64,000 nt of DNA from an uncultured Pseudomonadota bacterium. Lineage in GTDB: Bacteria > Pseudomonadota > Alphaproteobacteria > JACZXZ01. A model generated the notes under the pieces. It had not been told where the DNA came from and did not search any database. It saw nothing but the letters and a program-made list of their open reading frames with translations. Location of the stretch: contig CAVVLJ010000016.1 of assembly GCA_963749075.1 (NCBI GenBank), forward strand, positions 448,001-512,000, given 5' to 3'. Both the position numbers and the translations under genes were made by a program. This document shows, piece after piece, positions 29,987-49,990 of the stretch; positions within the stretch are counted from its first letter, which is position 1; the number at the start of each line of letters is the position of its first letter.

Positions 29987-31309
29987 ATGCCCGAGCAAAG
30001 CAAACGTCTTACCGAGGCGGATCTGGCGAGACTCAAGGCACTCCTCGACGCCCACGACCGCGGCGGTTTCTACGTCGAATATTGGCGCCTCACCGGCAGC
30101 GAGGAAGGCCTGCTGCAGGCCAACGTCGCCACCTTCAGCGGCTACATTGGCGGCATCGCGCTGAGCGTCAACATCGATCTCCAAAATGACCTGAAGGCGC
30201 GATATAAGGGGTTATTTGAAATATCTCAGGATGTGGCGAAATCCTTCTATGCCGCTGTGGAAACCGACGTCCGTGCCGGCGGGACCGGCCACCTGACGGA
30301 TCTTGCAGCGATAGACAGCGCCAAAAAAGCTTGGGAGGACCTGGTTCTCTCGAGATTCTTTCCCGGCAATCCGATCGACGCTTTTATCCATGCCATTCAC
30401 GGCGACTTCAGCAGGCTTGACGAGATCGTATCCCCGGGATCGGGTTACGCCCTTGCCGGCTATCTCGCGGAGCTCTACGGCTGGCGCTATGGCAAGCGGG
30501 CGTCCGACTTCGAAGGTCTCGCCGGCTATACCACGAAGATGGTGGAAGGCCCCGGCGGCCAGCGGATCAAGACCATCCTCGATCCCTCGGGCAAGACGGT
30601 GTTCGTCGAGAGCCCGCACCAGTATTTTCAAGACGTGCTGCCCGACATCGACCAACCGGACGCACAGCTCCCGTACAGCTTAAGCCGCTTCAAGGAATTT
30701 GACCGGGAATTTCGCGTCGAGGCGGATGAGAGCCATTATCCCTTCGGACCGGAGCACGAGCTCTGGCGGCCGCTGCCGCCCGGCATCGCCGACCGCGACC
30801 GCGCGAGCCAGGCGGCGCCGACCATGCCGGCTCCCGCACCCTTGCCCGAGCCGCCGCCCTTGCCGCCCTGGGGCGAGGACTTCCACGAGCTCATGCAGGA
30901 GCGCGGCCGGCACTTCCTCGGGCTCAGCCCGCGCCAGGCCATGTGGACCGGCGACGGAGACGGCGATGCCGCAGCGCAGTTCGCCTCCTTCGATCCCGAT
31001 GGCGCGAGTCCCGTCGGCGTATCGCTTGCGGAAGCTGACGCCGACGGCGAGGAGCCGGATGACGATGGCGAGCCGGACGGTCAGCCGCTGGCGAAGCTGG
31101 ACCGCTCCCTCGACGGCATCGCCCGGCAGCTCGGGGAGATCATCGCCGGCCTCGACGCCCAGTTGGCGCTGCGCCGGCGGCGCGCGCGCGAGATCGTCCG
31201 TGACGTCGAGGCATGGTTCGAGCGCGAGGCGAACAAGCCGCGGAACTCCTCCTGGCGCTACGACTTCCGGCGCACCTACACCCCGCCGGGTCCGGTGCCG
31301 CCGATGTGA
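29987..31309 (+). CDS. Putative effector A1: variable N-domain, Pro/Asp linker, conserved C-terminal tag
   Basis: C-terminus EANKPRNSSWRYDFRRTYTPPGPVPPM matches 48497-49990; N-termini unrelated. Confidence 0.7.
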   Translation: MPEQSKRLTEADLARLKALLDAHDRGGFYVEYWRLTGSEEGLLQANVATFSGYIGGIALSVNIDLQNDLKARYKGLFEISQDVAKSFYAAVETDVRAGGTGHLTDLAAIDSAKKAWEDLVLSRFFPGNPIDAFIHAIHGDFSRLDEIVSPGSGYALAGYLAELYGWRYGKRASDFEGLAGYTTKMVEGPGGQRIKTILDPSGKTVFVESPHQYFQDVLPDIDQPDAQLPYSLSRFKEFDREFRVEADESHYPFGPEHELWRPLPPGIADRDRASQAAPTMPAPAPLPEPPPLPPWGEDFHELMQERGRHFLGLSPRQAMWTGDGDGDAAAQFASFDPDGASPVGVSLAEADADGEEPDDDGEPDGQPLAKLDRSLDGIARQLGEIIAGLDAQLALRRRRAREIVRDVEAWFEREANKPRNSSWRYDFRRTYTPPGPVPPM

Positions 31310-31363
31310 GCGGGCCGCACGGCACCGCCGCGCGACAAATAATTGCCAGGCTCATCAATTCGC

Positions 31364-31470
31364 TTGACCGGTGGCCATCGCTCGGCTAGGATGTTGCCAT
31401 CCTGAGATGCTGCGCCCGCCGCCCGGCGGGCGTTTTCGTTTGCGGACACCGCTTCGTTTGCGGACACCGC
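31364..31470 (+). promoter_or_regulatory. Promoter plus hairpin/U-tract leader before head genes; 18-bp tandem repeat 31435-31470
   Basis: TTGACC-17-TAGGAT, CGCCCGCC-gccc-GGCGGGCG-TTTT; paralogous to 21061. Confidence 0.55.
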
Positions 31471-31529
31471 GCGCCCTCGCGGGCCGGCGCGGTGCGGGCG
31501 CCTTCATCCCGACCAGCACGGAGAGAGAC

Positions 31530-31829
31530 ATGGCCAAGAGCGAGCCCAAAGGCTCGGCCGATGCGGCCGCGCGCGTTGGCGTGAGGACGCCGGCCGCGGC
31601 CGCAGCGCCGGCGGCGCCCCGGACGGCGCCGGCCGGCGAGCCGGGCATGATCGCGCTGGTGAACGCCGCCGCGGCGGCGGCCGAGCGGGCGCGCGAGCGG
31701 GCGCGCGCGGCCTCGCTCCACGGTCTCGCGCTGCGTCTCGCCGAGCTCAAGGAGTTCGCCCTTCGCCTCGAGCCGGGCGAGGACCGCGAGGTGGCCGAGC
31801 TCCTCGAGATGCTGAGCAGGCGCATTTGA
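31530..31829 (+). CDS. Small hypothetical phage protein
   Basis: GGAGAG RBS, MAKSEPKG start, helical C-part. Confidence 0.55.
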   Translation: MAKSEPKGSADAAARVGVRTPAAAAAPAAPRTAPAGEPGMIALVNAAAAAAERARERARAASLHGLALRLAELKEFALRLEPGEDREVAELLEMLSRRI

Positions 31830-31851
31830 TGCGGGCGGCGGGAGAGCGGAG

Positions 31852-33213
31852 ATGACCAAGCTGAGCAAGATCGAGCGCGCGGCCCTTCCCGACAGCGCCT
31901 TCGCCGTGCCGGGGAAGCGCAAGCTCCTCATCGAGGACGCGAGCCACCTGCGCTTCGCCTGGGACGAGCTCGAGCGCACGCAGGACCTCACCGAGGCTGA
32001 GCGCGAGGAGGCGCGCCGGCGCATCCTCGCGCGGGCGCGCGAGCTCGGCATCGACACCAGCGGCTGGCTGCGCCTTAAGACCATGAGCCTCGAGCTCGGC
32101 GCGCTCGCGGCCATGAGCCTCGCCGTGCCGGCGACGCCCGATCACCCGAACAAGCTCGCCTTCTCGGGCGTGCTCGCCAAGATCGGCGAGCCCTCCGACC
32201 GCGCCGCCTGCGGCAGCCTCGGCCGCCGCGTGCAGCTCGCCCCCGCCGCCGTCGAGGCCGCACTCCCCACGCTCCTCGGCATGGCGGTCGATCTCGCTGC
32301 CGGCCTCGACGGCCACGACATCGCGCGCAAGATCGGCGTCATCACCGGCGCCAACGTGGCGGGCAACGAGCTCCGCATCGAAGGCTTTTTCTACGCCGCC
32401 GACTTCCCGGAGGAGATCGCGCGCATCCGCGCCGACAAGGCCGCCATGGGCTTCAGCTTCGAGGCCCAGCGCATCCTCGTCGAGGATTTGGAAGCCGATC
32501 CGCTGGTCATCACGGCGTGCGTCTTCACCGGGGCCGCCGTCTTGAGGAAGGACAAGGCGGCCTTCACCACCACCCGATTGGCGGCGCGCGCCGCAGAGGA
32601 GACGGAGATGGATGCGAACGCAGTTCTCGAGAGGATCGAGGCGCTCGGCAAGACGGTCGAGCGCCTCGCGCAGGCGGTTGCCGAGTTGAAGGGCGCCGGG
32701 TCCGCCCCGGGCACGCTCGCGGCGGCCGAGGCGAACGGGCGCGTGCGGCCCTACGCCGAGCGGCTGAACGCGCTCGCCGCCGACATGGAAGAGGGCGGCA
32801 TCGGCAGCGATCCGAGGCGCGGCCACGCCGCCGCCTTGCGCCAGGTGGCGGACGCGCTCATGGCCGATGCCGCCGAGGGGCGCCTGCCGAGCGTCTATCA
32901 CCGCCTCGAGGCGCGCGGCGAGAACGCCGCCGAGGCGCGGCTCGCCCGTCTCGAGGGCAGCGTCGCCAGCTTGGCGACGCTCCTCAAGGATCTCAAGGCG
33001 CAAGGCGCCTCGGCCGCCGGCACCGCGCCCGAGCGCAAGACCATCCCGCCCGCGGTGGGGGCGCTCCTCGCCAAGGCCAACCTCACGCTGCCGCTTGGCG
33101 ACGGCAAGCTCTCGGTGCAGCAGGTCGACGAGGCGCTCGGCAAGACGAACTTCACCGTCAACCAGAAGCTCCAGGTGAAGAACGTGCTGGCCCACGCCGG
33201 CATGCTGCACTGA
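31852..33213 (+). CDS. Prohead protease/scaffold-like protein with DUF6582-like N-terminus
   Basis: ERAALPDSAFAVPGKRKLLIEDASH N-domain; H..RKIGVIT, MGFSFE, FTGAAVL; coiled-coil C-half; directly upstream of capsid. Confidence 0.75.
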   Translation: MTKLSKIERAALPDSAFAVPGKRKLLIEDASHLRFAWDELERTQDLTEAEREEARRRILARARELGIDTSGWLRLKTMSLELGALAAMSLAVPATPDHPNKLAFSGVLAKIGEPSDRAACGSLGRRVQLAPAAVEAALPTLLGMAVDLAAGLDGHDIARKIGVITGANVAGNELRIEGFFYAADFPEEIARIRADKAAMGFSFEAQRILVEDLEADPLVITACVFTGAAVLRKDKAAFTTTRLAARAAEETEMDANAVLERIEALGKTVERLAQAVAELKGAGSAPGTLAAAEANGRVRPYAERLNALAADMEEGGIGSDPRRGHAAALRQVADALMADAAEGRLPSVYHRLEARGENAAEARLARLEGSVASLATLLKDLKAQGASAAGTAPERKTIPPAVGALLAKANLTLPLGDGKLSVQQVDEALGKTNFTVNQKLQVKNVLAHAGMLH

Positions 33214-33247
33214 TCCGGCTGCGACCCTCAGGAGAAGGAGACACGCC

Positions 33248-34228
33248 ATGGCCGAGTTCATGGAAATCAAGGCCGCAGCCGACTTCCTCGGCAACGGCGC
33301 CATCGAGATCAACCGCTACGAGAGCGAGATCTACGACATCTGCCGGCGCGGCTCGCCGACGCTGCAGCGCCTGCCGAGCGTGCCCGCCTCGGGCGCCCCG
33401 CACCGCTACTTCGAGCAGACCGCTGTGGCGCAGGCGCAGTTCACCGACCCGCGCAACATCTCGGCCACGGCCTCGGGCCCCAACCGCGTCGAGCGCTCGG
33501 CCGTCATCAAGGCGATCGTCGGGCAGACCAACCTCTCGCTCTTCGACGTGGACGTGACGCGCCAGCAGGGCCAGTTCGCCTATGTCGAGGCCAAGGACAT
33601 CGAGGACATCGTGAGCGGCATCGAGCTCGCGCGCGCCTCGAGCGTGTGGAGCGGCAACGACACCTCGCTCACCACGCCCACCACCAACCAGTACATGGGC
33701 CTCCTCTCCCAGATCGCGCAGCAGTTCACCGTGGCTCCGGGCGCCTCGATCATCGACGGCATCAAGGCGGCGGTGGCCCAGATGGTGGCCAACCAGACCT
33801 ACAAGGTGATGCCGAGCTGCATCTACGTGAACCCGCTTCTGGGCGACTACATCGACCGCGAGGCCAAGGCGACCGAGGTGACGCTCGGCCAGATGAACGT
33901 CGGCATCGGCCTCCTGGTCTCGACCATCAACACCCAGGCGGGTGCCCTTCCCATCGTGCCCGATCCCTTCCTTCCCTTCGTCACCACGGCGCAGTATGGC
34001 TTCGCGGCGCCGCCCACCGGCTTCCGCAACTACTTCGTCGCCATCCTGACCGAGGGCGCGGTCGAGATGCCCTACGTGCACGGCGGCGACGGCAACCCCA
34101 ACCCGCGCATCTTCCAGCTCGGGCTGCTCGGCGGCCTGCAGGGCCAGTACATCGGCATCAAGTTCGACTGCGTCATCGCCAAGGGTGCCTCCTACGCCCA
34201 TTCGGTGGTGGCCGTGCAGCGGCCGTGA
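33248..34228 (+). CDS. Major capsid protein
   Basis: 326 aa after the scaffold gene, strong RBS, highly biased codons, HK97-like layout. Confidence 0.75.
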   Translation: MAEFMEIKAAADFLGNGAIEINRYESEIYDICRRGSPTLQRLPSVPASGAPHRYFEQTAVAQAQFTDPRNISATASGPNRVERSAVIKAIVGQTNLSLFDVDVTRQQGQFAYVEAKDIEDIVSGIELARASSVWSGNDTSLTTPTTNQYMGLLSQIAQQFTVAPGASIIDGIKAAVAQMVANQTYKVMPSCIYVNPLLGDYIDREAKATEVTLGQMNVGIGLLVSTINTQAGALPIVPDPFLPFVTTAQYGFAAPPTGFRNYFVAILTEGAVEMPYVHGGDGNPNPRIFQLGLLGGLQGQYIGIKFDCVIAKGASYAHSVVAVQRP

Positions 34229-34391
34229 GCCGTCGCTGCTGCCCTCTCCCCTCGAGGGAGAGGGCGGGCAACGCGGTTGCGCGGCACCGCGAGCCGTGCC
34301 CGGCCTCGGCCCTTGATCGCCGGGGGCGCCCGTCCTAAAAGGATAGGCGCCCTCAAGATGCACAACCAGGAACGCGGCCGGGTGCCGCAGA

Positions 34392-34778
34392 ATGAAGAAC
34401 CTCGGGCGCCGAATCTTGCTGACCGCGGCTGTCGTGGGCCTCGTCCTCCCGTGGCGCGCACCGCCGTCGCTCGGCGGCGACAAGTTCGACGGCCGCCAGT
34501 TCCACAGCGGCGAGGAGCTTTACAACTGGTGCCGCTCGAATGATCCGACGGACCGCCAGGCGTGCGAGGTCTACGTGTGCGGTGTCCTGGACACCTGGAC
34601 CACCGCATATCTCGACTCACGTGCTTCGCCTTATCGCATTTGCATTCGCGGTCGGCCGGAATGCCGCGAGCTGAGCGATGCCGTCCTTAAGTACCTTGAA
34701 GAGCATCCGGCCGACCGGCACGCTCCGGCCGCCGAGGTCACGGAATATGCGCTGCAACAAGCGTTCATCTGTCCGTGA
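34392..34778 (+). CDS. Rap1a/Tai4-like immunity protein 1
   Basis: Signal peptide; SGEELYNWC...ACEVYVCGVLD...IC...V.KYL..HP...A....AL..AF.CP pattern. Confidence 0.8.
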   Translation: MKNLGRRILLTAAVVGLVLPWRAPPSLGGDKFDGRQFHSGEELYNWCRSNDPTDRQACEVYVCGVLDTWTTAYLDSRASPYRICIRGRPECRELSDAVLKYLEEHPADRHAPAAEVTEYALQQAFICP

Positions 34779-34782
34779 GACG

Positions 34783-35165
34783 ATGAAGAAGCGATTGGCG
34801 CGGATCATGCTTCTCGTTGCGGCCGCAAGCACGGCGGCCGCGTCGAGCGGCGCGCAGCTTGGTCACGGCAGCGAAGTCCGGAAGCCTTGGCTCTACGAGA
34901 TGCCGGAATTCTATAGCTGGTGCCGTTCGCCGGACCCGCGCGGCCAGCAGGCCTGCAAGACCTATGTGTGCGCCGTAGCGGACGCATTGGCGGCGGAATG
35001 CCTATTCGCCAAAACTTGGCCTCATCCGTTCTGCCTGCCTGCCGGGAGCTGAGCAAGGTGGTGCTGCGGCACCTCAAGGAGAATCCAATCGAGCTCAACT
35101 CGATCGTGTCTGACGTGGTCGGATACGCGCTCAAGGAGAAGTTTCCCTGCAACGCGGGCAACTGA
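34783..35165 (+). pseudogene. Rap1a-like protein 2, frameshifted near 35045
   Basis: FYSWC..ACKTYVCAVAD..FCLP then ELSKVVLRHLKENP..ALKEKFPC in another frame. Confidence 0.65.
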
Positions 35166-35718
35166 CGGCCGGCCCTGCCCAATGCGGCATTGAATGCCTG
35201 AACGATGCCAATCCCCAACGGGACGAGGAACGCGCGGCGGCCCAAGCACGGTGAATGACGGCATCGCGAGGTCGCGCAATATGCTCTACAGCGCGGCATG
35301 GAACGTTCAGCTCGCGGCGACCGTCCCGGCCTGGTTAGCGGTTGCCGCGGCACTACTGGGATTCCTCGAGGCCGCGGTCGAAGATATGCCGGAGTGGTTC
35401 ACCGAACCGCCGGTGTGGCCGGACTTCCCGCATCCTGCTGCCGCGCGGCGCTGGAATCCCGAGAGACCGGCTGGCGGCACGATAACGATCCCGATCCCCT
35501 GAAGGCTCGGCCATGTTCGTCTATCTCCACGGCGCGCGGCAGCAGGTGGGGCGCCGCACGCTCTTCGAGGATCGTCCACGGCGTCGAGGCGGCGGTCGCC
35601 AAAATGGTCGCCGACCGGACGTGCAGCCGGCCGTGGCACTTGATCGCCGGAGGTGCCCGTCCTAAAAGGATACGTACCGCAAAGACGCACAACCTGGGAC
35701 GCGGCCGGGTGCTGCAGG

Positions 35719-36117
35719 ATGAAGAACCTCGGGCGCCGAATCTTGCTGATCGCTGTCGCGGCATGCGCGGCGATGACAGCGCATGCGCAGCGGAACGACG
35801 AGCAGGACGGTTGGCCGTATTTCAGCGGCGAGGAGCTTTATGGCTGGTGCCGCTCGGGCGACGTCGCCGATCGCCGGGCCTGCGAGATCTATGTGTGCGG
35901 CCTGAGCGACGGGATGGCCACCGCGCTGATGATCAACCACAAGCGGCCGTACCGCATCTGCCTGCGGCACGGCATGACCTGCGGGCCTGTCAGCGAGGTG
36001 GTCGTGAAGTACCTCGAGGCGCATCCGGCCGACCGCGCGCGGCCGGCGTCCGAATTGGCCGGCGAGGCGCTGAGGGACGCCTTCCCCTGCCACGGCCGTT
36101 TTTGGATCGACGAATGA
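35719..36117 (+). CDS. Rap1a/Tai4-like immunity protein 3
   Basis: Paralogue of 34392 (MKNLGRRILL start; ALRDAFPC end). Confidence 0.8.
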   Translation: MKNLGRRILLIAVAACAAMTAHAQRNDEQDGWPYFSGEELYGWCRSGDVADRRACEIYVCGLSDGMATALMINHKRPYRICLRHGMTCGPVSEVVVKYLEAHPADRARPASELAGEALRDAFPCHGRFWIDE

Positions 36118-36506
36118 GGAAGCGCCTGCGGCGCATTCTGGTCCTTCTGCTCTTGCTGTGCACGGCATCGAGCGGCCACGCACAACTCGTCCATGCGGGC
36201 GACGTCTTCGACGGGCTTGATTTCTTCAATGGCAAGGAATTCTACGCCTGGTGCCGCTCGCCCGATCCGCGCGACCAGCGGGCCTGCGAGGCATATGTGT
36301 GCGGCGTGCTCGATGCCTGGTCCATGCAATATGCCAAGTTGCATATGAGGCCTTATCCGCTCTGCCTGCCCACCGGCATCACCTGCAAGCGCCTGAGCGA
36401 GCTGGTAACGGAATATCTCACGAAGGACCCGATGGCGCTCGGCGGTGATGGCTCTAGCGCGGTTGGGTATCCGCTCCTACAGATGTTCCGCTGTCTCAGC
36501 AGCTAG
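36114..36506 (+). CDS. Rap1a/Tai4-like immunity protein 4
   Basis: MRKRLRRILV signal peptide; NGKEFYAWC..ACEAYVCGVLD..LCLP. Confidence 0.75.
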   Translation: MRKRLRRILVLLLLLCTASSGHAQLVHAGDVFDGLDFFNGKEFYAWCRSPDPRDQRACEAYVCGVLDAWSMQYAKLHMRPYPLCLPTGITCKRLSELVTEYLTKDPMALGGDGSSAVGYPLLQMFRCLSS

Positions 36507-36611
36507 CGCTGCTTGGCCGGCGTCAGCGCGGAAGCAACGCTCACTCATCGAAGCTCGTACTGGCCGACCGCTTCGTCAGTCAGCGAATCGCTGTGCGGGG
36601 TGTGCTATCTG

Positions 36612-37025
36612 ATGCCGAAATTATTCGCGGATGTGACCGAGCCAAAATACGATCCTCGCGATGGTCTATGGCACAATCGGATGAGGTGGGTCGATGAAGA
36701 TGGCATCCAGCATGGCGTGACCGTGGAATTCAGCTGTCCCAGGCCGAATGTCTGCCCGAGCACGATCGACGAGGGCATCACAAGACTGCAATGGGCGCTG
36801 CTTCATGGGACGTTGGAAGTCGCGGGCGAGCTCGTCGGACCACGGTGGAAATTGCCGATAAACCTGTTGCACGCGCTCATGGGGTTCCTCGAAGGCGCAT
36901 CCGAGGAAATTCCGAAGCGGCCCACCGATAAACCGGCGTCGAGCGATCGCCCGCATCCACCGGCCAAGGATCACGCGGTCCCCGACGGGCCGGAAGGCGA
37001 CACGATCATAGTCCCGATCCCCTGA
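36612..37025 (+). CDS. Hypothetical protein (degenerate partial copy at ~35298-35502)
   Basis: Ends GDTIIVPIP; the remnant copy ends GGTITIPIP. Confidence 0.5.
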   Translation: MPKLFADVTEPKYDPRDGLWHNRMRWVDEDGIQHGVTVEFSCPRPNVCPSTIDEGITRLQWALLHGTLEVAGELVGPRWKLPINLLHALMGFLEGASEEIPKRPTDKPASSDRPHPPAKDHAVPDGPEGDTIIVPIP

Positions 37026-37035
37026 AGGCTCCCCC

Positions 37036-37278
37036 ATGTTCGTCTATCTCCATGGCGCGCGGCAGCAGGCGGGGCGGCACACGCTCTTCGTGGCGCCGGG
37101 CGCGGAGATCGCCACGGCGGAGTGGCGCACGCCCGAAGGGAAGCCGGTCACCTTTCCCGTGGTCTTCGAGGACGGGCGCGCCTCCGTGCCCGAGCCGCTC
37201 GGGCGCTATCTCGTCGCCCGCGGCATCGCGCACGCGGCGCGCCGCGCAATTCTGCTGCTTCCTGCCATCGGATCCTGA
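37036..37278 (+). CDS. Small phage head-associated hypothetical protein
   Basis: 80 aa, F..GRASVP..LGRYLV motif; position after capsid. Confidence 0.6.
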   Translation: MFVYLHGARQQAGRHTLFVAPGAEIATAEWRTPEGKPVTFPVVFEDGRASVPEPLGRYLVARGIAHAARRAILLLPAIGS

Positions 37279-37391
37279 GCGAGGAGGATCGGCGTCCCGC
37301 TGACCGCGGCGCGCCCTCCGAAGGCCTCCTCACCCCGACCCTCTCCTCCTGAAGGAGGAGAGCGAGATGTTTTGCCGAGGAGCTGAGCCCC

Positions 37392-37787: not shown

Positions 37788-37788
37788 G

Positions 37789-38694: not shown

Positions 38695-38706
38695 GGAGCG
38701 CCGACT

Positions 38707-39138: not shown

Positions 39139-39142
39139 GACA

Positions 39143-41584: not shown

Positions 41585-41617
41585 GGGACTGGGCGTGATG
41601 GACGAGGCGAGGGCGCC

Positions 41618-42046
41618 TCACGCTGCGTCGCGGCTCGCTACCACGAGCGATTTGCCGAGCGCGCGCATGGCGGCCTCGATCTGCTCGATCCCGGAGCGGT
41701 GCCGCAGGTCGAAGACGCGCATGACCTGGGGCATCGCCCAGCCAAGCCGCCGCGCGAGCGCCGCCTTGCTGATGCCCGCGCGGCGAAACTCGAGGTAGAG
41801 AAGTGCCTTGGCGGCCTCGAGCGGCGCCAGATGGACGAGCGGCCGGCCGCGCGCCGGAGACGGCTTGGGCAGCGCGCGCCCGTCGGCCACATAGGCGGAG
41901 ACGATCGTCTCGAGGAGATCGGCGGCGAAGCCGAGTGCCTCCTCCCTGGTCTCGCCGTGGGTGGCTCCGGTTCCGAAGTCGGGGAACGTCACCATGTAGC
42001 TTTTGCCGTCCCGCGCGACGGCTGCCGGATAGGCGAGCGTGGTCAT
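41618..42046 (-). CDS. hicB: HicB-family antitoxin
   Basis: YMVTFPDF...ATHGETREEAL..A.D.L, P.PS, C-terminal HTH. Confidence 0.85.
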   Translation of the reverse strand: MTTLAYPAAVARDGKSYMVTFPDFGTGATHGETREEALGFAADLLETIVSAYVADGRALPKPSPARGRPLVHLAPLEAAKALLYLEFRRAGISKAALARRLGWAMPQVMRVFDLRHRSGIEQIEAAMRALGKSLVVASRDAA

Positions 42047-42227
42047 CTAGCGGTTCTCCAGATCGGTCGGCTTCAAGCGGTCGTTTTAAGTGCATAAAAA
42101 TCTAGTTATTTCAATACGTTATAATTCCATCGTCCGATAACGGAAATTTAACAATCGCGAGATTATCACTTCCCGGGTGTCAACCCTATTGTAAAGTGTC
42201 AAGTGGGATGCTAAGTAGGATATTGCA

Positions 42228-43034
42228 ATGGGCAAAAAAATGAGCGACGCGCCGGTCTACTTCGTCCTTGGGCAGGTGCGCTTCAATGCGCTGCTCACTC
42301 TCGAGAGCTATGTGCCAACGATACAGGATTCATTGAGGAAAGTTGGGTATGCAGACTTTGCAAAAGCCACGATAGCAACGATCAATTTGAATATCGGCGT
42401 GCAAGTCGCCGTTAATCAAGTGCCGGTCGCACAAATTCCCCGCTATCAATTCTTAAATCAAGCCAAAACGGCTGGCTTCATTCTTACTCAATCGGCGCTC
42501 AGCTTCGAAACAACGGAATATCATACTTTTGAACCGTTTAGAGATGCATTGCTGTTGGGGCTGAAAACAATCGATGAGGCCACGGGAGGACTTAGCTTTT
42601 CCGAACGCATCGGAATTAGATTTCTTGATGCGGTATGTCCTCGACCGAACGAAAACCTGTCAGACTATCTAGCGCCGTCACTGATCGGACTAAGTGACAA
42701 GCTTAATGGCAGAAAACTCACACGGGCGGTTTCAGAGACGTGGTCCGCCTTAGATAAAACGAACCTTATGTGCCGGGTAGTTATTCATGACCAAGCCGCC
42801 AAAGGGCCTGGCTTTCCTCCCGATCTTCATCCAGAGGCGGTGATTTTTCAAATATCTGAAAAATTTCGCAACATAACCGGGCTATATGCTATTATTGACA
42901 CTGATAGTTGGCATGAAGAGAGGCAAAAATTCTCTATCGACAAAATTAAAGAAATCCTGGGGGGACTTCATGCTACCACGCGTCGATCATTCGACGATAT
43001 GGTCACACCGCACGCTCTCATGGTTTGGGAGTGA
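42228..43034 (+). CDS. TIGR04255-like sporadically distributed protein (low GC)
   Basis: APVYFVLGQVRF, ETTEY..FE.F, ERIGIRFLD, IIDTD..H, F..MVTPHAL..W pattern. Confidence 0.7.
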   Translation: MGKKMSDAPVYFVLGQVRFNALLTLESYVPTIQDSLRKVGYADFAKATIATINLNIGVQVAVNQVPVAQIPRYQFLNQAKTAGFILTQSALSFETTEYHTFEPFRDALLLGLKTIDEATGGLSFSERIGIRFLDAVCPRPNENLSDYLAPSLIGLSDKLNGRKLTRAVSETWSALDKTNLMCRVVIHDQAAKGPGFPPDLHPEAVIFQISEKFRNITGLYAIIDTDSWHEERQKFSIDKIKEILGGLHATTRRSFDDMVTPHALMVWE

Positions 43035-43041
43035 TTGTGAC

Positions 43042-43644
43042 ATGGAACGTCTAAATCAAACGACTCCATGGCTAGATAAAGACATAGTAGTGTCTTTTCT
43101 CATGCCGGTCACGCTCGCCTTGCAATTGGGCACGGGAGGGTATGAGACAAGAGAATATTACCAGCAGCGTTTACTCGATACGGTGCCAACTTATTATGGG
43201 CGTGCGGACTCCGGGCTTCCTGTCTCTGTGTCGAGGAATAATGCAAGCGACGTGCGCCACGTCCTGGACGTTCTTAAGCCTTCCGTTACAGGGCTTGCGA
43301 GATATTTGGGCGTCTCTCGGACGACGATTTACGACTGGAAGCACGGGAAGCAGGTCGGCGCGGACAATGCTGCGAAGTTGGCGAGCTTTTCGCGAGCGGC
43401 GGATGTCATCGCCGACGCGAATTTGCAGATGTCGCCCCTAGTTCGGGGAAGGAAACTCCCAGGCGGGATGACATTGTTCGAATCCATCGCGAGCGGCGCC
43501 GATGCCGAACAGGCCGCACTAGCGCTCGTCACAATGCTGCGCGAGGAGGCTGCTCGGCGAGATAGGCTCACAGCCCGGTTTTTGGGTCGCATCAAGCCCG
43601 ACACGGAGGGCACACACGATGCTCCTACCGTGTTCAATGAGTGA
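43042..43644 (+). CDS. HTH DNA-binding/antitoxin-like protein
   Basis: LKPSVTGLARYLGVSRTTIYDWKHG HTH. Confidence 0.7.
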   Translation: MERLNQTTPWLDKDIVVSFLMPVTLALQLGTGGYETREYYQQRLLDTVPTYYGRADSGLPVSVSRNNASDVRHVLDVLKPSVTGLARYLGVSRTTIYDWKHGKQVGADNAAKLASFSRAADVIADANLQMSPLVRGRKLPGGMTLFESIASGADAEQAALALVTMLREEAARRDRLTARFLGRIKPDTEGTHDAPTVFNE

Positions 43645-44493
43645 GTGCGATTTGTGGCCGGGCGTCACCCAAGAATCAGTTGGCGCCAGGGTCACGTTCT
43701 AACGGCCGATACCGCCGAGAAACTCGGACTAGCCCATCCAGCGAACCCCACAGAAACTACAGTTGTGGTCGTTTCTCACGACTGCGATCTCGTGCAGAGC
43801 GAAACGAGCGAACCGCTAGTGGAAGTCATTATTGGCCGCGAAATCAACGAAGACGAAGTCAATGGCAATTTCCTCAACGCAAAGGGATCGCGCACGCTTC
43901 ATCTTCCGTTTACCGCTGGGTCTAGTAGGCTTATTCTCGAGTTGTCCGCGACACAGAAACGCCAGATTGATAAGGCCGCGCTGATCCCCCATAACCCATC
44001 GCCGATCGCGCAACTGTCGCTAAGCGGGCGAAGAATTCTGCAGCGATGGCTAGCGGCGCGATACCTACGCGCCGCGTTTCCAGATGAATTTGTGGCTCGC
44101 TTCGGCAATTCAGGTGCTGACGAGCGGCTTAAAAAGATAGTGAAGAAGGCACAATCGCATCTCGTGGCAATCTATTTTGACCTCGATCGAGGGGAAGAAA
44201 AAGAGCGCGCAGGCGACGACGATCTTTATGAATTATCGATTTTCCTGGTACATCCAGTTGACCCCGATCCTGCGATCTCTCGGGAAGCTGCGCACGAGGC
44301 GAAGGTTCTTATCGAGCAAATGTTTGAGACATGTTGTAAGCACGATGGCCAGTGGCGGGGCATCCAGTTGGAAGGGTGCTACGTCCAGTCGGCTGCGGAA
44401 GTGACTTTGCACACAGTCGATTTTTTAAAGAAATGGAATACCGATTATCTAAGTTTCCGCGCCGATCCAGAAGGCCCGATGGTCGCCGTCTAG
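43645..44493 (+). CDS. Hypothetical protein, third gene of the low-GC cassette
   Basis: WRQG, VVSHDCD, EPLVE, WLAARYLRAAFPD motifs; coupled to previous gene. Confidence 0.7.
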   Translation: MRFVAGRHPRISWRQGHVLTADTAEKLGLAHPANPTETTVVVVSHDCDLVQSETSEPLVEVIIGREINEDEVNGNFLNAKGSRTLHLPFTAGSSRLILELSATQKRQIDKAALIPHNPSPIAQLSLSGRRILQRWLAARYLRAAFPDEFVARFGNSGADERLKKIVKKAQSHLVAIYFDLDRGEEKERAGDDDLYELSIFLVHPVDPDPAISREAAHEAKVLIEQMFETCCKHDGQWRGIQLEGCYVQSAAEVTLHTVDFLKKWNTDYLSFRADPEGPMVAV

Positions 44494-44626
44494 AATTTAC
44501 GGCTTGACCATCGATTATGTGCGGCCTTTTTTGCAATCACTTTTCTGCTCAGGAGACCGTGCGTCGGCTCGCCCCCCGCCGCGAGCCCGCCTTCCATCGT
44601 CGCCCGTCAAGTGAGAGGTGCCAGCC

Positions 44627-45058
44627 ATGCCGTTCAACAATTTCAGCGTCGGCAAGGACGTGACGCTGCAGATCGTCACCCAGCAGGGAGTGCTGCTCTC
44701 CTCGCTCCTCACCAGCTTCACCTCGAAGCAGCGCACCAACGACAAGACCGTCAAGGGCCTCGACGGCGTCATGCGCCCGCTCTTCCTGCCCGACGGCTGG
44801 GAGGGCACCTTCGAGTACGAGCGCGGCAGCTCCGACCTCGACGACTTCATCGCCGCGCTCGAGGCCAACTACTACGCGGGCGAGGCCATCACCGGCGCCA
44901 CCATCCTCGAGACGATCAGCGAGACCAACGGCCTGACCAGCCAGTACCGCTACGAGGGCGTGGTCTTCAAGCTCTCCGACGCCGGCGAATGGAAGGGCGA
45001 TTCGAGCGTCAAGATGCGCCTCGAGTTCTCGGCGAGCACGCGCAGCAAGGTGGTATGA
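44627..45058 (+). CDS. Tail tube protein
   Basis: 143 aa, FSVGKDVTL, PDGWEGTF, ETI.E..G....YRY, W.GD..V; first phage gene after sheath once the inserts are removed. Confidence 0.8.
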   Translation: MPFNNFSVGKDVTLQIVTQQGVLLSSLLTSFTSKQRTNDKTVKGLDGVMRPLFLPDGWEGTFEYERGSSDLDDFIAALEANYYAGEAITGATILETISETNGLTSQYRYEGVVFKLSDAGEWKGDSSVKMRLEFSASTRSKVV

Positions 45059-45071
45059 GCAGGCGCCCGCC

Positions 45072-46004
45072 ATGGCGCTGGTTCCCGATACCACGCTCAC
45101 GCTCGGCGACGTGAGCTTCGCCTCCTACGAGGTGCCGGAGCGCATCTCGTTCGGCGGCGCGCAGCGCCTCGCCGTGCACAAGGTCATCGGCGGCGCGCGC
45201 GTCGTCGACGCGCTCGGCCCGGACGATGCGGAGATCTGCTGGTCCGGCCGCTTCCAGAGCCCGAATGCCGGCCCGCGCGCGCGCCACCTCGACTATCTGC
45301 GCCGCCAGGGCACGGCGCTCACCCTAAGCTGGGACCAGTTCAGCTACAGCGTGGTGATCAGCCGCTTCGCGGCGGAGTTCGAGCGCTACTACCAGATTCC
45401 CTACCGCATCGCCTGCCTTGTCGTCGAGGACGACACCCAGCCGGTGACGACGAGCCCGTCGACGCCGGTCGACGAGCTGGTGGCGGAGGACGCGGCCGAG
45501 CTCGCGAGCCTCGCCTCCTCGAGCGGCAATAGCGGGATTGCCGGCAGCACCGGGCAGCTCCAGGCGCTCCTCGCCTCGTCGGCACCTCTCGCCGCGGCCT
45601 CGGCAGGGACGCTCGCCGCACTCGAGAGCCTGCTCGCCGAGCTCGCGGCGCTGATCGCGGCGGCCATTGCCGCGGCGGCCCCCGCCTTCGACGGCGGCGC
45701 CTCAGCGGGCTCGGGGGCGGCGGCGCTGCTCGGCCAGTCGAGTGCCGCCGCGGCACTCGCAATCCTCCTCGAGATGCAGGCGCTCGCCGGCCGCATTGCC
45801 TGCAACCTGCGCCGGGCCTCACCCGCCGCGTCCGGCCGCACCATCACTGTCGCCGGCGGCAATCTCTTCAGCATCGCCGCGGCACTCCTCGGCGACGCCA
45901 CCCAGTGGAGCCGCATCGCGGCCCTGAACGGCCTCACGGACCCGGTGCTCGCCGGCATCACGCAACTGCGCCTGCCGCCCATCGATACGAGCGCGGGCGG
46001 CTAG
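45072..46004 (+). CDS. Tail protein with C-terminal LysM-like domain (tube initiator/gpU-gpX-like)
   Basis: EVPERISFGG.QRLAVH, GGNLFSIAA..LGDATQWSRIAALNGL.DP. Confidence 0.75.
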   Translation: MALVPDTTLTLGDVSFASYEVPERISFGGAQRLAVHKVIGGARVVDALGPDDAEICWSGRFQSPNAGPRARHLDYLRRQGTALTLSWDQFSYSVVISRFAAEFERYYQIPYRIACLVVEDDTQPVTTSPSTPVDELVAEDAAELASLASSSGNSGIAGSTGQLQALLASSAPLAAASAGTLAALESLLAELAALIAAAIAAAAPAFDGGASAGSGAAALLGQSSAAAALAILLEMQALAGRIACNLRRASPAASGRTITVAGGNLFSIAAALLGDATQWSRIAALNGLTDPVLAGITQLRLPPIDTSAGG

Positions 46005-46040
46005 CATTCGGCGCGCCGGAGAACGATGGAGAGAGACAGC

Positions 46041-46484
46041 ATGCCGGACAACGTCAAGCTCACGCTCCACCCCGAGCGCCCGCGCGCCAACGGCGCCGAG
46101 GGTGCTGCCCACGCCGCGACACCGTCCCAGGAGATCCTGGAGCGCGCCAACCGCATCGTGCGCGTCTCCGACGCGCGCGGGCGCACCCTCGGCGTCAAGC
46201 AGCCGAGCCTCCTCGAGCGCTTGCGCATCTACGAGCTGGCCGGCGCGCAGAACGCCGAGAACAAGGTCTATCTCGGACTCGTGGGCACCGTGCTCGCGAT
46301 CGCCGAGCTCGACGGCGAGCGGCTGCCCTTCCCCGCCACCAAGCGCGAGCTCGAGGCGCGGGTGAGCCTGGTCGGCGACGAGGGGCTGGCGGCGGCCGGC
46401 CGCGCGCTCGCCGAGCATTTCAGCGAGCCCGCCGCCGCCGATGACGAGGAGACGGCAAAAAACGCATCGGGCACCCCGGCTTGA
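46041..46484 (+). CDS. Tail assembly chaperone (gpG-like)
   Basis: Ends with in-frame A AAA AAC slippery heptamer (46457-46463). Confidence 0.75.
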   Translation: MPDNVKLTLHPERPRANGAEGAAHAATPSQEILERANRIVRVSDARGRTLGVKQPSLLERLRIYELAGAQNAENKVYLGLVGTVLAIAELDGERLPFPATKRELEARVSLVGDEGLAAAGRALAEHFSEPAAADDEETAKNASGTPA

Positions 46485-46633
46485 AGCAGGCGCTCTACCT
46501 CGCTTCGAGAGGGGTGCCGTTCGACATCGCCTTCTCGCTGCCGGACCGCGAGCGGACCGGCTGGTGCCGCATGCTTGCCGAGCTCGAGCGGCCGGGCCTC
46601 GTGCGAATCGTCGACGGCCGCCGGCGCAGGTGA
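46457..46633 (+). CDS. -1 frameshift extension (gpGT-like)
   Basis: The -1 frame is open from the slippery site: KRIGHPGLKQALYLASRGVPFDIAFSL...ELE. Confidence 0.7.
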   Translation, partial: KKRIGHPGLKQALYLASRGVPFDIAFSLPDRERTGWCRMLAELERPGLVRIVDGRRRR

Positions 46634-46680
46634 AGACGCCCGCGATAATTATATATGTGTGCCGGCCGCAGAATTCGGAC

Positions 46681-46708
46681 TTGATTTGTTCCTGTCTTGC
46701 GCTATAAT
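46681..46708 (+). promoter_or_regulatory. Sigma70-like internal promoter for cassette A2
   Basis: TTGATT-16-TATAAT. Confidence 0.55.
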
Positions 46709-46996
46709 GGGTGTAACGACCGTAGGATTTTCAATCTTAGGTCACTGCCCCTTGACGCCGGCCGCCGCCGACGGGCGCAGGAGCGGAAGCTGTCGTGAGG
46801 GGCTCGGCCATCGGACTGTCGGCGGCGTGGGCAGCGTCGGCGACCGGCCGGCCGGCCGCGCGGGAGTCGCTGCCGCTGCTTGCGGGTTGGGCGCAGCGCC
46901 CGTCTCCACAAGCGCGCGGCATCTCGCGACGGCCGGCCGGCCGTCTTTACCGGCGGTGTGGCGCCGTTTGGCGCCCTTGACGCCAGGAGAGCGAGC

Positions 46997-47743
46997 TTGA
47001 GACTGCCGTGGCGCAAGCGGGGGGCGGCGGCGGGCAATGCCGCAGGCCGCGCGCGCAAGCGCCCGCGCGTCATTGCGCGCGTGCTCGCCGGCTCAGCCCT
47101 CCTCCTCATCGCGGCCGTCTTCGGCCACGGCCTTGTGGTGAGCCTCTCGGGACCGAAGGAGGGCGCGCCCGGCCGCGACGGGGCGCCCACCGGCTACACC
47201 TACGATCTTACGCCGCTGATCCTCGAGATCGGCCCCCATAGATTCGTCGTCCCGCGCGGCTACCTCTACGCTTATGACGTAGGCAAGACGCGGCAGAGAT
47301 CGATCGGCATCCAGGTCATGCTGCCCGACTTCGAGCCGATCTCTCCGAGCAACAGCGCCTGCTTCGCCGACCAAGGAACGTGCAACGACATTTTCTGGCT
47401 GGGCCTGAGCCCGGGGCGCGGCGTGCCTGCCGAGCAACAATTGGCCAACGTGCTGCGCGGTGCCGAGGATAATGTTCGGCCTGCCTACGGGTTCGCTCAG
47501 CATTTGAACACGACCTTTGGCAGGCGTGCGGAGATATACACCTCAGGCGAGGGGCACGAGCTCCTGTTCCTCGATTGCGACACGCCCGATGAGCTGCTGC
47601 CTAGCTGCAGCCAAGAGCGCCCGCTCGGGGACGGCCTCGTGCTGTGGTACTATTTTCGCCGCGTCCATCTCGCCGAATGGCCCGACATCGAGCGCAAGGC
47701 GATGGCCTTGATCGCGCGTTTCGAGGGCGGGGACAGCCCTTGA
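46997..47743 (+). CDS. Single-pass membrane protein, putative immunity A2-i (TTG start)
   Basis: TM; C-terminal FRRVHLAEWPDIERKAMALIARF, similar to the A1 proteins. Confidence 0.7.
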   Translation: MRLPWRKRGAAAGNAAGRARKRPRVIARVLAGSALLLIAAVFGHGLVVSLSGPKEGAPGRDGAPTGYTYDLTPLILEIGPHRFVVPRGYLYAYDVGKTRQRSIGIQVMLPDFEPISPSNSACFADQGTCNDIFWLGLSPGRGVPAEQQLANVLRGAEDNVRPAYGFAQHLNTTFGRRAEIYTSGEGHELLFLDCDTPDELLPSCSQERPLGDGLVLWYYFRRVHLAEWPDIERKAMALIARFEGGDSP

Positions 47744-48423
47744 AGCAGCCGTGGCCGAAGCGCCCGGGCGGCTGCATAAGACTCCTTGCCGCCTGCGTCC
47801 TCGCGCTCGTCGCGGTCATCTTCGGCCACGGCCTCTTGGGGAACCTCTCGGGACCGAAGGAGGGCGAGCTTGGCCGCGACGGCGCGCCCACCGGCTACAC
47901 CTACGATCTCGGGCCGGTCGCGGTAACGCTCGGCCCCTACGCGCTCCGCATTCCGCACGCCTACATTATCTGGAAGTCCGATCGTGGGCTTGTCGTGCTC
48001 GACGCTATCCTCCCCGACCTCGAGCCGATCCGGCCGGCCACCAGCGGCTGCTTTGCCAGGCCATGGGAATGCCATCGCGTCGTGGGGATCGCGCTTGGAG
48101 AGGAGAAGTTGCTCCCCGCCGACGAGCAGCTCGCGAATATCACCCGCGGCCTTGAGGACAAGACCCGGCCGGTCTTCGGGTTCATCCAGCATATCAATAC
48201 GACCATACGAGCGATGGCGGAGACCTACAGCATGGGCCAGGGACGCGACATGCGCCTTCTCTCTAGCGATCCGCCGGACAAGGCCGATGCCGGTTGCGAC
48301 GAGGATCGGGAAATCAGGGAAGGGTTGGTCATGACTTTCCGGTTCGATCGAGAGCGCCTTGCCGAATGGCCGGAGATCGAGCGCAAGGTGATGGGTCTGG
48401 TTGCGACCTTCATGCGCGAGTAG
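47740..48423 (+). CDS. Putative immunity A2-ii (TTG start)
   Basis: Paralogue of 46997 (LSGPKEG..GRDGAPTGYTYDL; RLAEWPEIERKV). Confidence 0.7.
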   Translation: MKQPWPKRPGGCIRLLAACVLALVAVIFGHGLLGNLSGPKEGELGRDGAPTGYTYDLGPVAVTLGPYALRIPHAYIIWKSDRGLVVLDAILPDLEPIRPATSGCFARPWECHRVVGIALGEEKLLPADEQLANITRGLEDKTRPVFGFIQHINTTIRAMAETYSMGQGRDMRLLSSDPPDKADAGCDEDREIREGLVMTFRFDRERLAEWPEIERKVMGLVATFMRE

Positions 48424-48496
48424 CCGGCCTGCGCGCGGCCCACGCCGGCTGATCGACGACCGCGAACCGACGCCCGGGCTCCTGAGGCATCATCCC

Positions 48497-49990
48497 ATGG
48501 ACAAGGAATTGCGGCTGCATCCCGAGGCGCTCGCCGCGGCGAGAGCCTATTGGCGGGCCAAGGATTATGCCGCGATGTACCGCGTGATCGCCCGGGATTT
48601 GCGCAGCCTCGGCGCGGATCACGATACCCAGGTCTGGTACGACCTGGCGGCCGGGATCAACGATCCGAAGTCGGAAAGCTTCCGCGGCGCCTTGGGGCGC
48701 TACTACGTGATGGAGAAGCTCTTCCAAGAGACCGGGCGGCTGATCGCGCCGTTCGGGGACGACTTCAACCGGGTGTCCGACGAGATCGCCTGGAAGGTTG
48801 GAAAATATGCCTACGAGCATGACGGCCTCGTTAGGACTTGGCCGGAAATCATGCAGAGGGATGCGCTGGCCGCAACGGAAGGTTTCCACAGCAGCCCAGA
48901 GGTCTGGCCCGGCTTCGCGGACGCCGAGCTCCTCGACTGGTGGCCGAAGTCGCTGTTCCCAAGGAGCTTCGACGACCATAGCTTTGCTGCCGACCTGCCG
49001 CCGGCCACGGCGACGGAGGTCGGACGCGCGGGCCTGAATGCCTTTTTCGACGAGGTCGAGGCGCCCGCTTGGGGTCCGCTCCGCTTCTACATCGAGGTGG
49101 GGCGCCTTGCCGCCCAGGGCCTCTACTCGACATGGCGCGGCGATTTCCGCGGCCACGACGGCGATTGGCTCGGCACCGGCAAACTCTATTGGCAGGAGCT
49201 CGGCAAGGAGCTCGAGCGTCCGTGGCATTGGGGCGACGACGTGCCGCCCGCGCCAGGTCCGCTCGGCGGGGACCTCCTCTTGCACGGCGCCGGCTCGCGC
49301 CTTTCGCTCATGGCAGCGCCGGACTCCCATTCCGGGCCGGCGCCGTCCGTCGCCGCCTCCTTCGCCGCCGATCGCGCGCGCACCGCCCTGGCGCTCCCCG
49401 GTTCCTTCGAGCCGGATTTAGCGATGCGCGGCTCTTGGATATGGCCGGACGCAGCGGCGCCGGCGACCCCGCCCGCGCCCCCGTTCGCCGCGGACGCCTC
49501 GCCTCTCCTCGCGTTGCCCTATCTGCCGGAGATGCGCGACGGGCTCGAGCTTCGGCATCTCGCGCTGCCTCCCGCCTGGGGCTCCGGGCATCTCTTCCCG
49601 GAGCTGTCGTTTCTTCCCGCGCGCGCCGCCGCCGACGGCTTCGATCCCGAGCCTGGCGACGTGCCGCACTGGCCGGCGGCCGACGAGTTCGTGCCTGACG
49701 GCGAGGCGAGCTTGCACGGTGACGGACCGCCGCCCCAGGGAGAGACCGGCGAGGACGGAAGGCGCCTCGAGCGCGTCGAGGGCGGCATCGGGCGGATCGA
49801 GCAGTCGCTGGCCGAGGTGGTCGCCAAGCTCGAGGCGAGCTACGCGCGGCGCGAGCGGCTCGGCCGCCGCGAGATCATTCGCGTGGTCTCCGAGTGGCTG
49901 GAGTACCAAGCCAACAAGCCGCGCAACATGTCGTGGCGCTACGACTTCCGCCGCACCTACACACCGCCGGGCCCCGTGCCCGCCATGTGA
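48497..49990 (+). CDS. Putative effector A2 at the tape-measure position
   Basis: Unique N-domain, Pro/Ala linker, coiled coil, tag QANKPRNMSWRYDFRRTYTPPGPVPAM shared with 29987. Confidence 0.7.
   Translation: MDKELRLHPEALAAARAYWRAKDYAAMYRVIARDLRSLGADHDTQVWYDLAAGINDPKSESFRGALGRYYVMEKLFQETGRLIAPFGDDFNRVSDEIAWKVGKYAYEHDGLVRTWPEIMQRDALAATEGFHSSPEVWPGFADAELLDWWPKSLFPRSFDDHSFAADLPPATATEVGRAGLNAFFDEVEAPAWGPLRFYIEVGRLAAQGLYSTWRGDFRGHDGDWLGTGKLYWQELGKELERPWHWGDDVPPAPGPLGGDLLLHGAGSRLSLMAAPDSHSGPAPSVAASFAADRARTALALPGSFEPDLAMRGSWIWPDAAAPATPPAPPFAADASPLLALPYLPEMRDGLELRHLALPPAWGSGHLFPELSFLPARAAADGFDPEPGDVPHWPAADEFVPDGEASLHGDGPPPQGETGEDGRRLERVEGGIGRIEQSLAEVVAKLEASYARRERLGRREIIRVVSEWLEYQANKPRNMSWRYDFRRTYTPPGPVPAM

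Follow-up and report, generated by a model that had tools for sequence, protein, structure and literature searches.

Why should two proteins of one phage element, unrelated over most of their length, end in the same peptide? The question is raised by a window of 64,000 nucleotides (the whole stretch of DNA analysed here: assembly GCA_963749075.1, contig CAVVLJ010000016.1, positions 448,001 to 512,000) from an uncultured alphaproteobacterium, which holds a myovirus-type structural gene cluster running from a terS-like gene through baseplate gene J. The proteins are P0001, of 440 amino acids (aa), encoded by the open reading frame (ORF) 29987-31309, and P0002, of 497 aa, encoded by ORF 48497-49990, the longest version of which begins at TTG 48401; both genes are on the plus strand. 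We consider it probable that the shared end, here called the tag, is the conserved module at the C-terminus of this myophage lineage's tape-measure protein (TMP), and that P0002 and P0001 are TMP-type proteins of the tail lumen with exchangeable N-terminal domains and possible protectors. Since the window comes from a soil-metagenome assembly (run table), all findings rest on sequence alone.

BLASTP of P0001 against P0002 picked out only the last 107 aa as significant (51/107 identical, E 5e-24), and the next best segment had an E value of 0.49. The shared part amounts to ~90-107 aa. The original prediction, that the two ORFs have only their C-terminal part in common and are otherwise unrelated, is therefore borne out at the sequence level. 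The last 26 residues, ANKPRNxSWRYDFRRTYTPPGPVPxM, are identical at 24 of 26 positions; of their codons 16 are identical, 8 differ synonymously only and 2 carry replacements. This pattern indicates that the peptide rather than the DNA is conserved, as had been claimed, and it fits purifying selection on the tag peptide. Copy 1 of the tag (31043..31306, plus strand) makes up the last 88 aa of P0001 and copy 2 (49721..49987, plus strand) the last 89 aa of P0002, the TMP-like module being the last ~40 residues. When both 80-aa tags were compared by tblastn with the whole assembly (5.49 Mb, 23 contigs), only these two loci were found (E ≤ 2e-20), the next best match having an E value of 0.03.

Both proteins are built alike. 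P0001 consists of an N-terminal domain of ~245 aa, a Pro/Ala-rich linker and a C-terminal helix followed by the tag; in P0002 the N-terminal domain is ~240 aa long and the Pro/Ala-rich linker 180 aa, again followed by helix and tag. The middle 120-180 aa contain 17% Pro and 13-17% Ala, and no hydrophobic segments were found in either protein. Pfam and PHROG scans of P0001 and P0002 gave no family at E ≤ 1. AlphaFold2 models were too poor for use (mean pLDDT 37.2 for P0001 from a 2-row alignment, 37.9 for P0002 from the single sequence). The coiled coil that had been predicted ahead of the motif is matched in these models by a C-terminal helix (residues 367-415 and 419-472), seen at low confidence only (pLDDT about 40-54). 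Both ORFs are intact, and their G+C content at third codon positions (GC3), 0.80-0.85, is of the coding type.

The setting of P0002 is that of a tail module. The closest phage is Ralstonia phage Raharianne, which is matched by 12/50 window proteins, all of the tail module and including the sheath (65% identical), tube, chaperone, gp42, hub, V, W and J. The tail tube gene (44618..45058, plus strand; 48% identical to Raharianne gp37, with a phrog_12993 match) lies upstream of a gene, 46026..46633 on the plus strand, for tail assembly chaperone 2 (TAC-2; phrog_20383, E 3e-19), the G form of which spans 46026-46484. A slippery heptamer, A_AAA_AAC, is found at 46457-46463 and the -1 ORF extends over 46481-46633; the body of the protein matches Raharianne 21259-21558 and the -1 extension 21618-21719. 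The phrog_20383 protein is homologous to Raharianne gp38, the gene of which directly follows the tube gene. Judged by this homology, and by the features combined at 46026-46633 (a position beyond the tube gene, the slippery heptamer, and a -1 extension that is conserved), the phrog_20383 protein is a tail assembly chaperone of the G/GT type. A paralogue 50% identical to TAC-2, TAC-1 (27079..27462, plus strand; phrog_20383, E 8e-15), stands far upstream, and no -1 frameshift extension was seen in it.

Chaperone (46026-46633), two genes of a family here called C, P0002 and hub (52582) follow one another in this order, and the identity of the chaperone together with its frameshift site means that P0002 lies where relatives have their tape-measure gene. 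P0001, too, comes after a chaperone paralogue, but its place is among the head genes, outside the TMP slot. In relatives the slot is filled by Raharianne gp41 (636 aa), which matches the TMP family phrog_9145 (E 1.5e-4), and by a Komagataeibacter phage phiKX1 protein of 742 aa (PhiKX1_610), which matches the TMP family phrog_28 (E 1.3e-6). No canonical TMP was detected in the element by Pfam or PHROG matches among 46 and 44 scanned proteins, and tblastn with the Raharianne and phiKX1 TMPs against the genome gave nothing at E ≤ 0.01. The gpD-like baseplate hub (52582..53697, plus strand; phrog_52 tail protein, E 1e-30; VgrG-related NF033848, E 2e-13; 39% identical to Raharianne gp43) is presumably the docking partner of the TMP C-terminus. 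The Raharianne gp42 homologue (phrog_21362; 45072..46004, plus strand) has its counterparts in relatives between TMP and hub. A complex prediction with chaperone and tag alignments scored 0.01 against a mark of 0.32, which is no verdict and counts neither way.

The two tagged genes each close a similar cassette made up of a chaperone-family gene, C-family paralogues and the tagged gene. In cassette 1 the phrog_20383 protein at 27079-27462 is followed by three tandem C-family paralogues and P0001, in cassette 2 that at 46026-46484 by two C-family paralogues and P0002.

The likeness of the tag to the ends of tape-measure proteins had been proposed at the outset, and it stood up to comparison. 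The reference set comprised the C-termini of 13 IMG/VR sequences, tblastn relatives of the last 140 aa of Raharianne gp41, and a first profile-profile score of 21.3 compared with a mean of 9.5 and a maximum of 14.6 in 200 column shuffles. A chaperone search of 400 genomes of the same class revealed two further prophages, in G079 and G345, with intact synteny: sheath, tube, chaperone, a gene X, a gp42-like gene, hub and V. The X protein of G079, 516 aa long, starts with a non-canonical N-terminus; a long region rich in Gly, Pro and Ser then leads to a short helix and an end of the LDGR type. Its 42 residues from the Leu of LDGR to the stop are the same number as in the metagenome tags, which it matches at 15/43 ungapped positions by our own count. 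This TMP-slot protein (L044 11129-12679, minus strand), which has no TMP family match, thus displays the architecture of the tagged proteins within a fully canonical tail synteny.

With G079 and G345 added, 7 tags were compared with 15 C-termini of TMPs or TMP-slot proteins, the last 60 residues of each being used. Hhalign gave a probability of 83.7% (E 8e-6) over 40 ungapped columns, both profiles ending within 5 residues of the stop. Our own profile-profile run scored 28.6, a value reached in 0/100 column shuffles (mean 8.5, maximum 13.2). By this comparison the tag is homologous to the TMP C-termini of the same tail module, and we take it as a diverged member of the TMP C-terminal module of this lineage, an assignment that depends on the reference alignment, as single sequences do not score. 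The motif of the module is roughly xLDGRxVxxxV...(R/K)P...(F/Y)D....(T/R)PxG, with 40-43 residues from the first Leu to the stop. A further clade from IMG/VR (L046 to L050) shares this tail module, and its TMP-slot proteins are only 388-424 aa long and have the canonical N-terminal motif and a related Pro-rich end, which implies that the TMP-slot proteins of this lineage are in general short and variable; the tagged proteins span 440-593 aa and are without the canonical N-terminus. Of the idea of a loading signal placed on two unrelated proteins, the TMP-like end survives. Because it is P0002 that fills the TMP slot, with no further TMP found, the pair are better seen as TMP-type proteins with exchanged N-termini.

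An exhaustive HMMER search of 1.84 billion representative proteins with a profile of the two tags returned 6 proteins at E ≤ 0.001: P0001, P0002, P0003 (593 aa), P0004 (99 aa), P0005 (337 aa) and P0006 (444 aa). The tag match stops at or beside the final residue in all six. A tag search of the metagenome collection gave six short contigs, L005-L010. The tag is thus confined neither to the two window proteins nor to non-phage contexts, either of which would have spoken against the original prediction: four further proteins carry it at the C-terminus, three types of N-terminal domain are represented, and the setting is that of a phage tail. Other collections yielded little. A word-indexed homologue search with the tag region found only P0001 and P0002 among 264 candidates; tblastn of the tag against a phage collection (50,697 records) gave no match; 37 pattern matches in GTDB representative genomes and 44 in IMG/VR included none that was confirmed; and the genomes of 61 relatives held none except a weak match in G050 (E 0.003, helix part only), on which no claim rests. 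In run X2, a second sample from the same soil study, one contig matches only the part of the tag at window 49934-49971, and its loose ends encode the other tag variant, as in L007-L010; both variants therefore co-occur in that study.

A chaperone-family gene adjoins the tagged gene in 2/2 window cassettes and in 4/6 metagenome contigs, lying downstream of it in L005, L006 and L007 and upstream in L010; the remaining two contigs could not be scored, as they stop 15 nucleotides past the tagged gene and start inside the gene before it. The L005 chaperone also has a -1 extension. This arrangement suggests arrays of cassettes, each with chaperone, anchored-protein and tagged-protein genes. In L006 the tube gene (1921-2325) directly follows the tagged gene and is without its first ~20 codons; in L010 a gpV gene (1-162), 85% identical to the window gpV over 39 aa, ends after residue ~107, directly before the chaperone gene.

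What precedes the tag is not constant. The N-terminal domain of P0001 is homologous to that of P0003 (36% identity over the alignment), and a Lipase_3 domain is found on P0006 and on the full-length forms encoded by L008 to L010 (29 bits, cut-off 22). The tag therefore occurs on the P0001/P0003 type, the P0002 type and Lipase_3, that is, on at least three apparently unrelated N-terminal domains of ~250 aa, two of unknown fold. The joining of one conserved C-terminal module to several unrelated domains is an arrangement expected of polymorphic effectors. The Lipase_3 match, made by Pfam in metagenome relatives, is the only indication of enzymatic activity for the variable domain. In all cases the linker between this domain and the tag, which is probably disordered, contains 12-17% Pro and 13-19% Ala. 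Word-indexed searches with the N-terminal domains of P0001 and P0002 each retrieved only the query itself, and a search of the ESM Atlas with both gave no usable match.

Wherever the sequence upstream of a tagged gene can be read, the preceding gene encodes a protein that has one hydrophobic anchor, at its N-terminus. Three tandem C-family paralogues (C group 1; 27546..29940, plus strand), with one such anchor each, precede P0001; they are 65-69% identical to each other, and their 46-50 nucleotide spacers and different frames indicate that they are separate genes (27546-28367, 28418-29152, 29200-29940). Upstream of P0002 are two membrane-anchored paralogues with a hydrophobic anchor (C group 2; 46880..48423, plus strand, namely 46880-47743 and 47644-48423), 46% identical mutually and 24-44% to C group 1. 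The partner varies with the N-terminal domain: C group 1 stands in three copies before P0001, C group 2 in two copies before P0002, and a WD40/PD40 propeller gene precedes the lipase form in 3/3 contigs. In G079 a gene for a two-segment membrane protein lies on the opposite strand between the chaperone and the TMP-slot gene. Such co-variation of anchored protein and N-terminal domain resembles the pattern of effector-protector pairs, and the anchored proteins may protect cells carrying the element, by immunity or by superinfection exclusion.

How might such a protein work? In the reading preferred here, P0002 is the protein in the TMP slot of the element and P0001 a second TMP-type paralogue with a chaperone paralogue of its own. 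In both, as in their metagenomic relatives, only the C-terminal helix and the motif would have been retained, while a domain of one of at least three unrelated kinds would stand in place of the usual TMP N-terminus. The chaperone would coat the tagged protein and keep it soluble, and the C-terminal module would dock at the hub of the baseplate as the tube grows round the protein. In solved tails, such as that of A-1(L), the distal end of the TMP is described as ordered at the baseplate. On contraction the tagged protein would be expelled first, into the envelope of the target cell, where its N-terminal domain would act; the upstream membrane-anchored proteins may shield cells that carry the element. 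Loading, ejection, enzymatic action and protection we infer, the steps in the tail from what is established for contractile tails in general. Read from the sequences themselves were the tag's homology to TMP ends, the position of P0002 in the TMP slot, the chaperone linkage, the exchange of N-terminal domains and the co-varying anchored partners. The whole suggests a phage lineage that swaps different enzyme-like domains onto a tail-loading module.

We advance a wider form of this proposal tentatively, and rather doubt it: that the TMP slot of such myophages is a polymorphic delivery platform, in which a conserved C-terminal docking module and a dedicated G/GT-type chaperone load interchangeable periplasm-acting domains, lipase and others, into the lumen of the tail, each element carrying several chaperone-protector-cargo cassettes, kin being shielded by the anchored protectors, and a disordered Pro/Ala-rich chain rather than a helix spanning the tube.

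A number of observations weigh against the reading of P0001 and P0002 as TMP-type proteins with a TMP-derived end. Neither matches a TMP family over its length, and both are without the N-terminal motif of canonical relatives and without hydrophobic segments. The first hhalign run, made with a narrower reference set, found ungapped, co-terminal alignments of 39-40 columns with a probability of 12-14% (P 0.002), and the difference from the 83.7% of the wider set means that the result depends on the reference alignment. A hidden Markov model (HMM) of the TMP C-terminus scored the tags at -4 to 2 bits, the best chance matches in 33,163 ORFs of the genome reaching 9.5 bits, and the reverse test, a tag HMM against the TMP C-terminus sequences, was equally blank. 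P0001 lies in the head-gene region, 3.4 kb downstream of portal, the scaffold-like gene and the capsid gene coming after it. The C family has distant relatives (25-28% identity) in 24/400 other genomes of the class, in ordinary chromosomal neighbourhoods near DAO oxidoreductase and hexapeptide transferase genes and with no phage genes or toxins; this weakens the immunity reading, so a protector role is put forward conditionally. The element also bears signs of decay. No integrase, lysis or replication genes were seen in scans of it. The terS-like gene (phrog_12540) is interrupted after 21628 by ~2 kb of DNA of lower G+C content. Of the three genes of a family here called B, B1 has at least two frameshifts and B3 one, only B2 being intact. 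Finally, the cassette adjoins a 5'-truncated tube gene in L006 and a truncated gpV gene in L010.

These signs of decay would be expected if the element, which is flanked by host genes on both sides, were a defective prophage in which both tagged genes are recombination remnants keeping the 3' end of a TMP gene by descent and having no present function; the truncation of tube and gpV at the cassette junctions points the same way. A purely degenerate origin is possible, yet we judge it improbable, for it fits poorly with two intact ORFs of coding-type GC3 and with the selection on the tag seen in its 8 synonymous and 2 replacement differences, and the N-terminal domain is conserved between P0001 and P0003 and the lipase form recurs in three contigs. 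It is unlikely, too, that we are dealing with an ordinary tape measure only, P0002 being a length ruler, P0001 a redundant duplicate, the N-terminal domains structural parts and the anchored genes unrelated morons, with neither effector nor immunity function. A plain ruler would occupy the TMP slot and have a TMP-like C-terminus, the TMP-slot proteins of relatives are likewise short and of low complexity (352-424 aa), and the C-family relatives elsewhere are ordinary chromosomal genes; but a ruler accounts neither for the same tag on three unrelated N-terminal domains, one with the Lipase_3 fold, nor for a partner gene that varies together with that domain, nor for a second chaperone with a TMP-type cassette outside the tail module.

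The two other explanations take the tag as an address of a different kind. That it is an export signal for a non-phage secretion system, either a type VI secretion system (T6SS) or a type IV secretion system (T4SS) of the XVIPCD kind, with the genes as prophage cargo, we regard as very improbable. The layout is admittedly effector-like: the N-terminal domain is variable and enzyme-like, the C-terminal module is conserved, and a gene for an exported protein lies upstream. One C protein weakly matches a T4SS-inhibitor family over 26 residues (E 0.0015; 17.8 bits, the cut-off being 500). Two TssC genes are present in the genome; the T6SS, however, is on a different contig, VirD4 (PF02534) was not found in the genome, and neither was PF20410, though its control was silent; the Pfam scan gave no XVIPCD match. 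Above all, the tag is linked to a phage tail chaperone wherever the flanks are readable and aligns to TMP ends. We give hardly any credence, either, to the idea that the tag targets cargo, at least P0001, into the capsid. P0001 does lie between portal and scaffold genes, a region in which MuF toxins are reported in temperate phages (PMC5576092), but no MuF domain is present in P0001 or P0002, the cassette partner of P0001 is a tail chaperone paralogue, and the identical tag is carried by the TMP-slot protein. The tape-measure origin of the tag, with exchange of the N-terminal domains, is the reading that we prefer.

The remaining structural genes of the window comprise the terS-like gene (21269), terminase (23717), portal (25202), a scaffold-like gene (31852), capsid (33248), an adaptor (37789) and the sheath (40028); beyond the tube (44618) and the gpD-like hub (52582) follow the gpV spike (58793), PAAR (59400), a W-like gene (59661) and baseplate J (59995). 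The gpV-like spike (58793-59392) and the PAAR tip (59400-59657), together 58793..59657 on the plus strand, were recognized by Phage_base_V and PAAR_motif. A direct repeat of 116 bp (21513-21628 and 23663-23777; 99% identity) bounds the insert in the terS-like gene, and the second of the two copies overlaps the start of the large terminase gene (window 21269-23777 region). An 80-bp repeat of 80% identity is found just downstream of P0001 (31361-31441) and upstream of the terS-like gene (21058-21137). Three soil-metagenome DNA runs belonging to one study gave contigs that cover 44600-53700 in part and at low depth, and the covered parts are free of indels; one contig contains a junction of 46448 to 51798 with 33 foreign letters, which we leave uninterpreted.

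Downstream of P0002 a 2.5-kb unit is triplicated (50011-58791; 79-83% nucleotide identity), its units being split by the gpD-like hub gene. Each encodes A, a protein with a signal peptide (49894-50838, 53797-54558, 56337-57110), and B, a protein of 544 aa (51090-52533, 54601-56235, 57153-58791). The B1 frameshift sites were left unresolved by the contigs of the soil-metagenome runs. The B family has a sub-threshold Phage_lysozyme match (E 0.15), and the conserved helix at its C-terminus bears no relation to the tag; a sequence search of the PDB with B2 gave nothing at E ≤ 1. Its C-terminus was considered as a relative of the tag because of a 'VEAW' likeness and was rejected, since only 4 columns could be aligned with the tag profile, at a probability of 0.5%.

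Rap1a is an immunity fold for amidases of the T6SS. Three Rap1a-like genes, one of them truncated, stand directly after the capsid gene (34392-34778, truncated ~34783-35052, ~36114-36506) within diverged tandem DNA repeats (34392-36506); an amidase to match them was not identified. Between sheath and tube, an insert (41585-44600) holds a minus-strand gene (41618-46) for a HicB-like antitoxin and genes for a TIGR04255-family protein (42228-43034), a helix-turn-helix (HTH) protein (42886-43644) and an unknown 282-aa protein. Related palindromic repeats of ~70-100 bp, which look like repetitive extragenic palindromic (REP) elements, are intergenic both inside and outside the phage cluster (39044-39138, 46845-46943, 918-989, 4566-4658, 2008-2082), and one of them sits between chaperone and C genes. 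The genome also has a T6SS, far from the window, with two adjacent TssC (VipB) genes (G000 contig C20, 505788-508284).

Tape-measure proteins are usually regarded as rulers, sometimes with an embedded lytic motif. The nearest known counterparts of the tagged proteins are the TMPs of Raharianne (gp41), phiKX1 (PhiKX1_610) and their IMG/VR relatives, which occupy the same slot after the G/GT chaperone. The C-terminal ~40 residues of these Raharianne-like TMPs align ungapped with the tag at an equal distance from the stop. Outside the C-terminus there is no similarity: the tagged proteins have neither the canonical N-terminal motif nor the hydrophobic segments and carry instead a globular-looking N-terminal domain and a Pro/Ala-rich linker of 120-180 aa, and the element has two such genes, each with a chaperone paralogue and upstream genes for anchored proteins. 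Here the conserved C-terminal end and its chaperone stay, the remainder of the protein is exchanged, and the partner genes change in step. Literature searches for TMPs together with polymorphic toxins, immunity, lipase or chaperones gave no such arrangement among the titles and abstracts listed, which does not prove it unpublished. The C-terminal motif can be used to recognize highly diverged TMP-slot proteins that family models miss. If the tagged proteins are loaded and ejected, phage tails carry swappable envelope-acting cargo, and a minimal candidate loading tag of ~40-80 aa is at hand for contractile tails; should the TMP slot prove to be a polymorphic platform, it would be a phage-borne counterpart of the effector-immunity arsenals of the T6SS.

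The X-Tfe effectors of bacteria-killing T4SSs have variable N-terminal enzymes, lipases among them, and a C-terminal XVIPCD domain (Pfam PF20410), with genes for exported protectors upstream. The tagged proteins differ in having no XVIPCD match (the control for PF20410 being silent) and in their phage-tail context, in a genome in which no VirD4 was found. For the anchored proteins, precedents exist among phage exclusion systems: Spackle of T4 acts against the gp5 lysozyme, and gp15 of HK97 is also an exclusion protein. Ltp of TP-J34 is described as a prophage exclusion protein that acts on an incoming tail protein (PMC3952083). These anchored or periplasmic neutralisers are a model for the C-family and propeller proteins by position, topology and co-variation only.

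Two systems described in the literature are closest in design. In the MuF polymorphic toxins of temperate phages a conserved virion-targeting module is reported to be fused to variable domains, with protector genes nearby (PMC5576092); there, by that account, it is a head protein domain at the N-terminus that is conserved, the toxin forming the C-terminal part, and the MuF domain is absent from P0001 and P0002. The Sle1-type effectors of the contractile injection systems (CIS) of Streptomyces are described as having a TMP-derived part that serves as a platform for exchangeable domains inside a contractile tail-like particle, one member having an adjacent immunity gene (PMC13277306). Compared by description, their polarity is opposite, the TMP-like coiled coil being N-terminal and the variable domain C-terminal, and they belong to actinobacterial CIS clusters with a Sle2 partner, whereas the tagged proteins belong to a phage with head genes and a G/GT chaperone. 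If loaded and ejected, the latter would be a proteobacterial counterpart, of opposite polarity, to these TMP-related CIS effectors.

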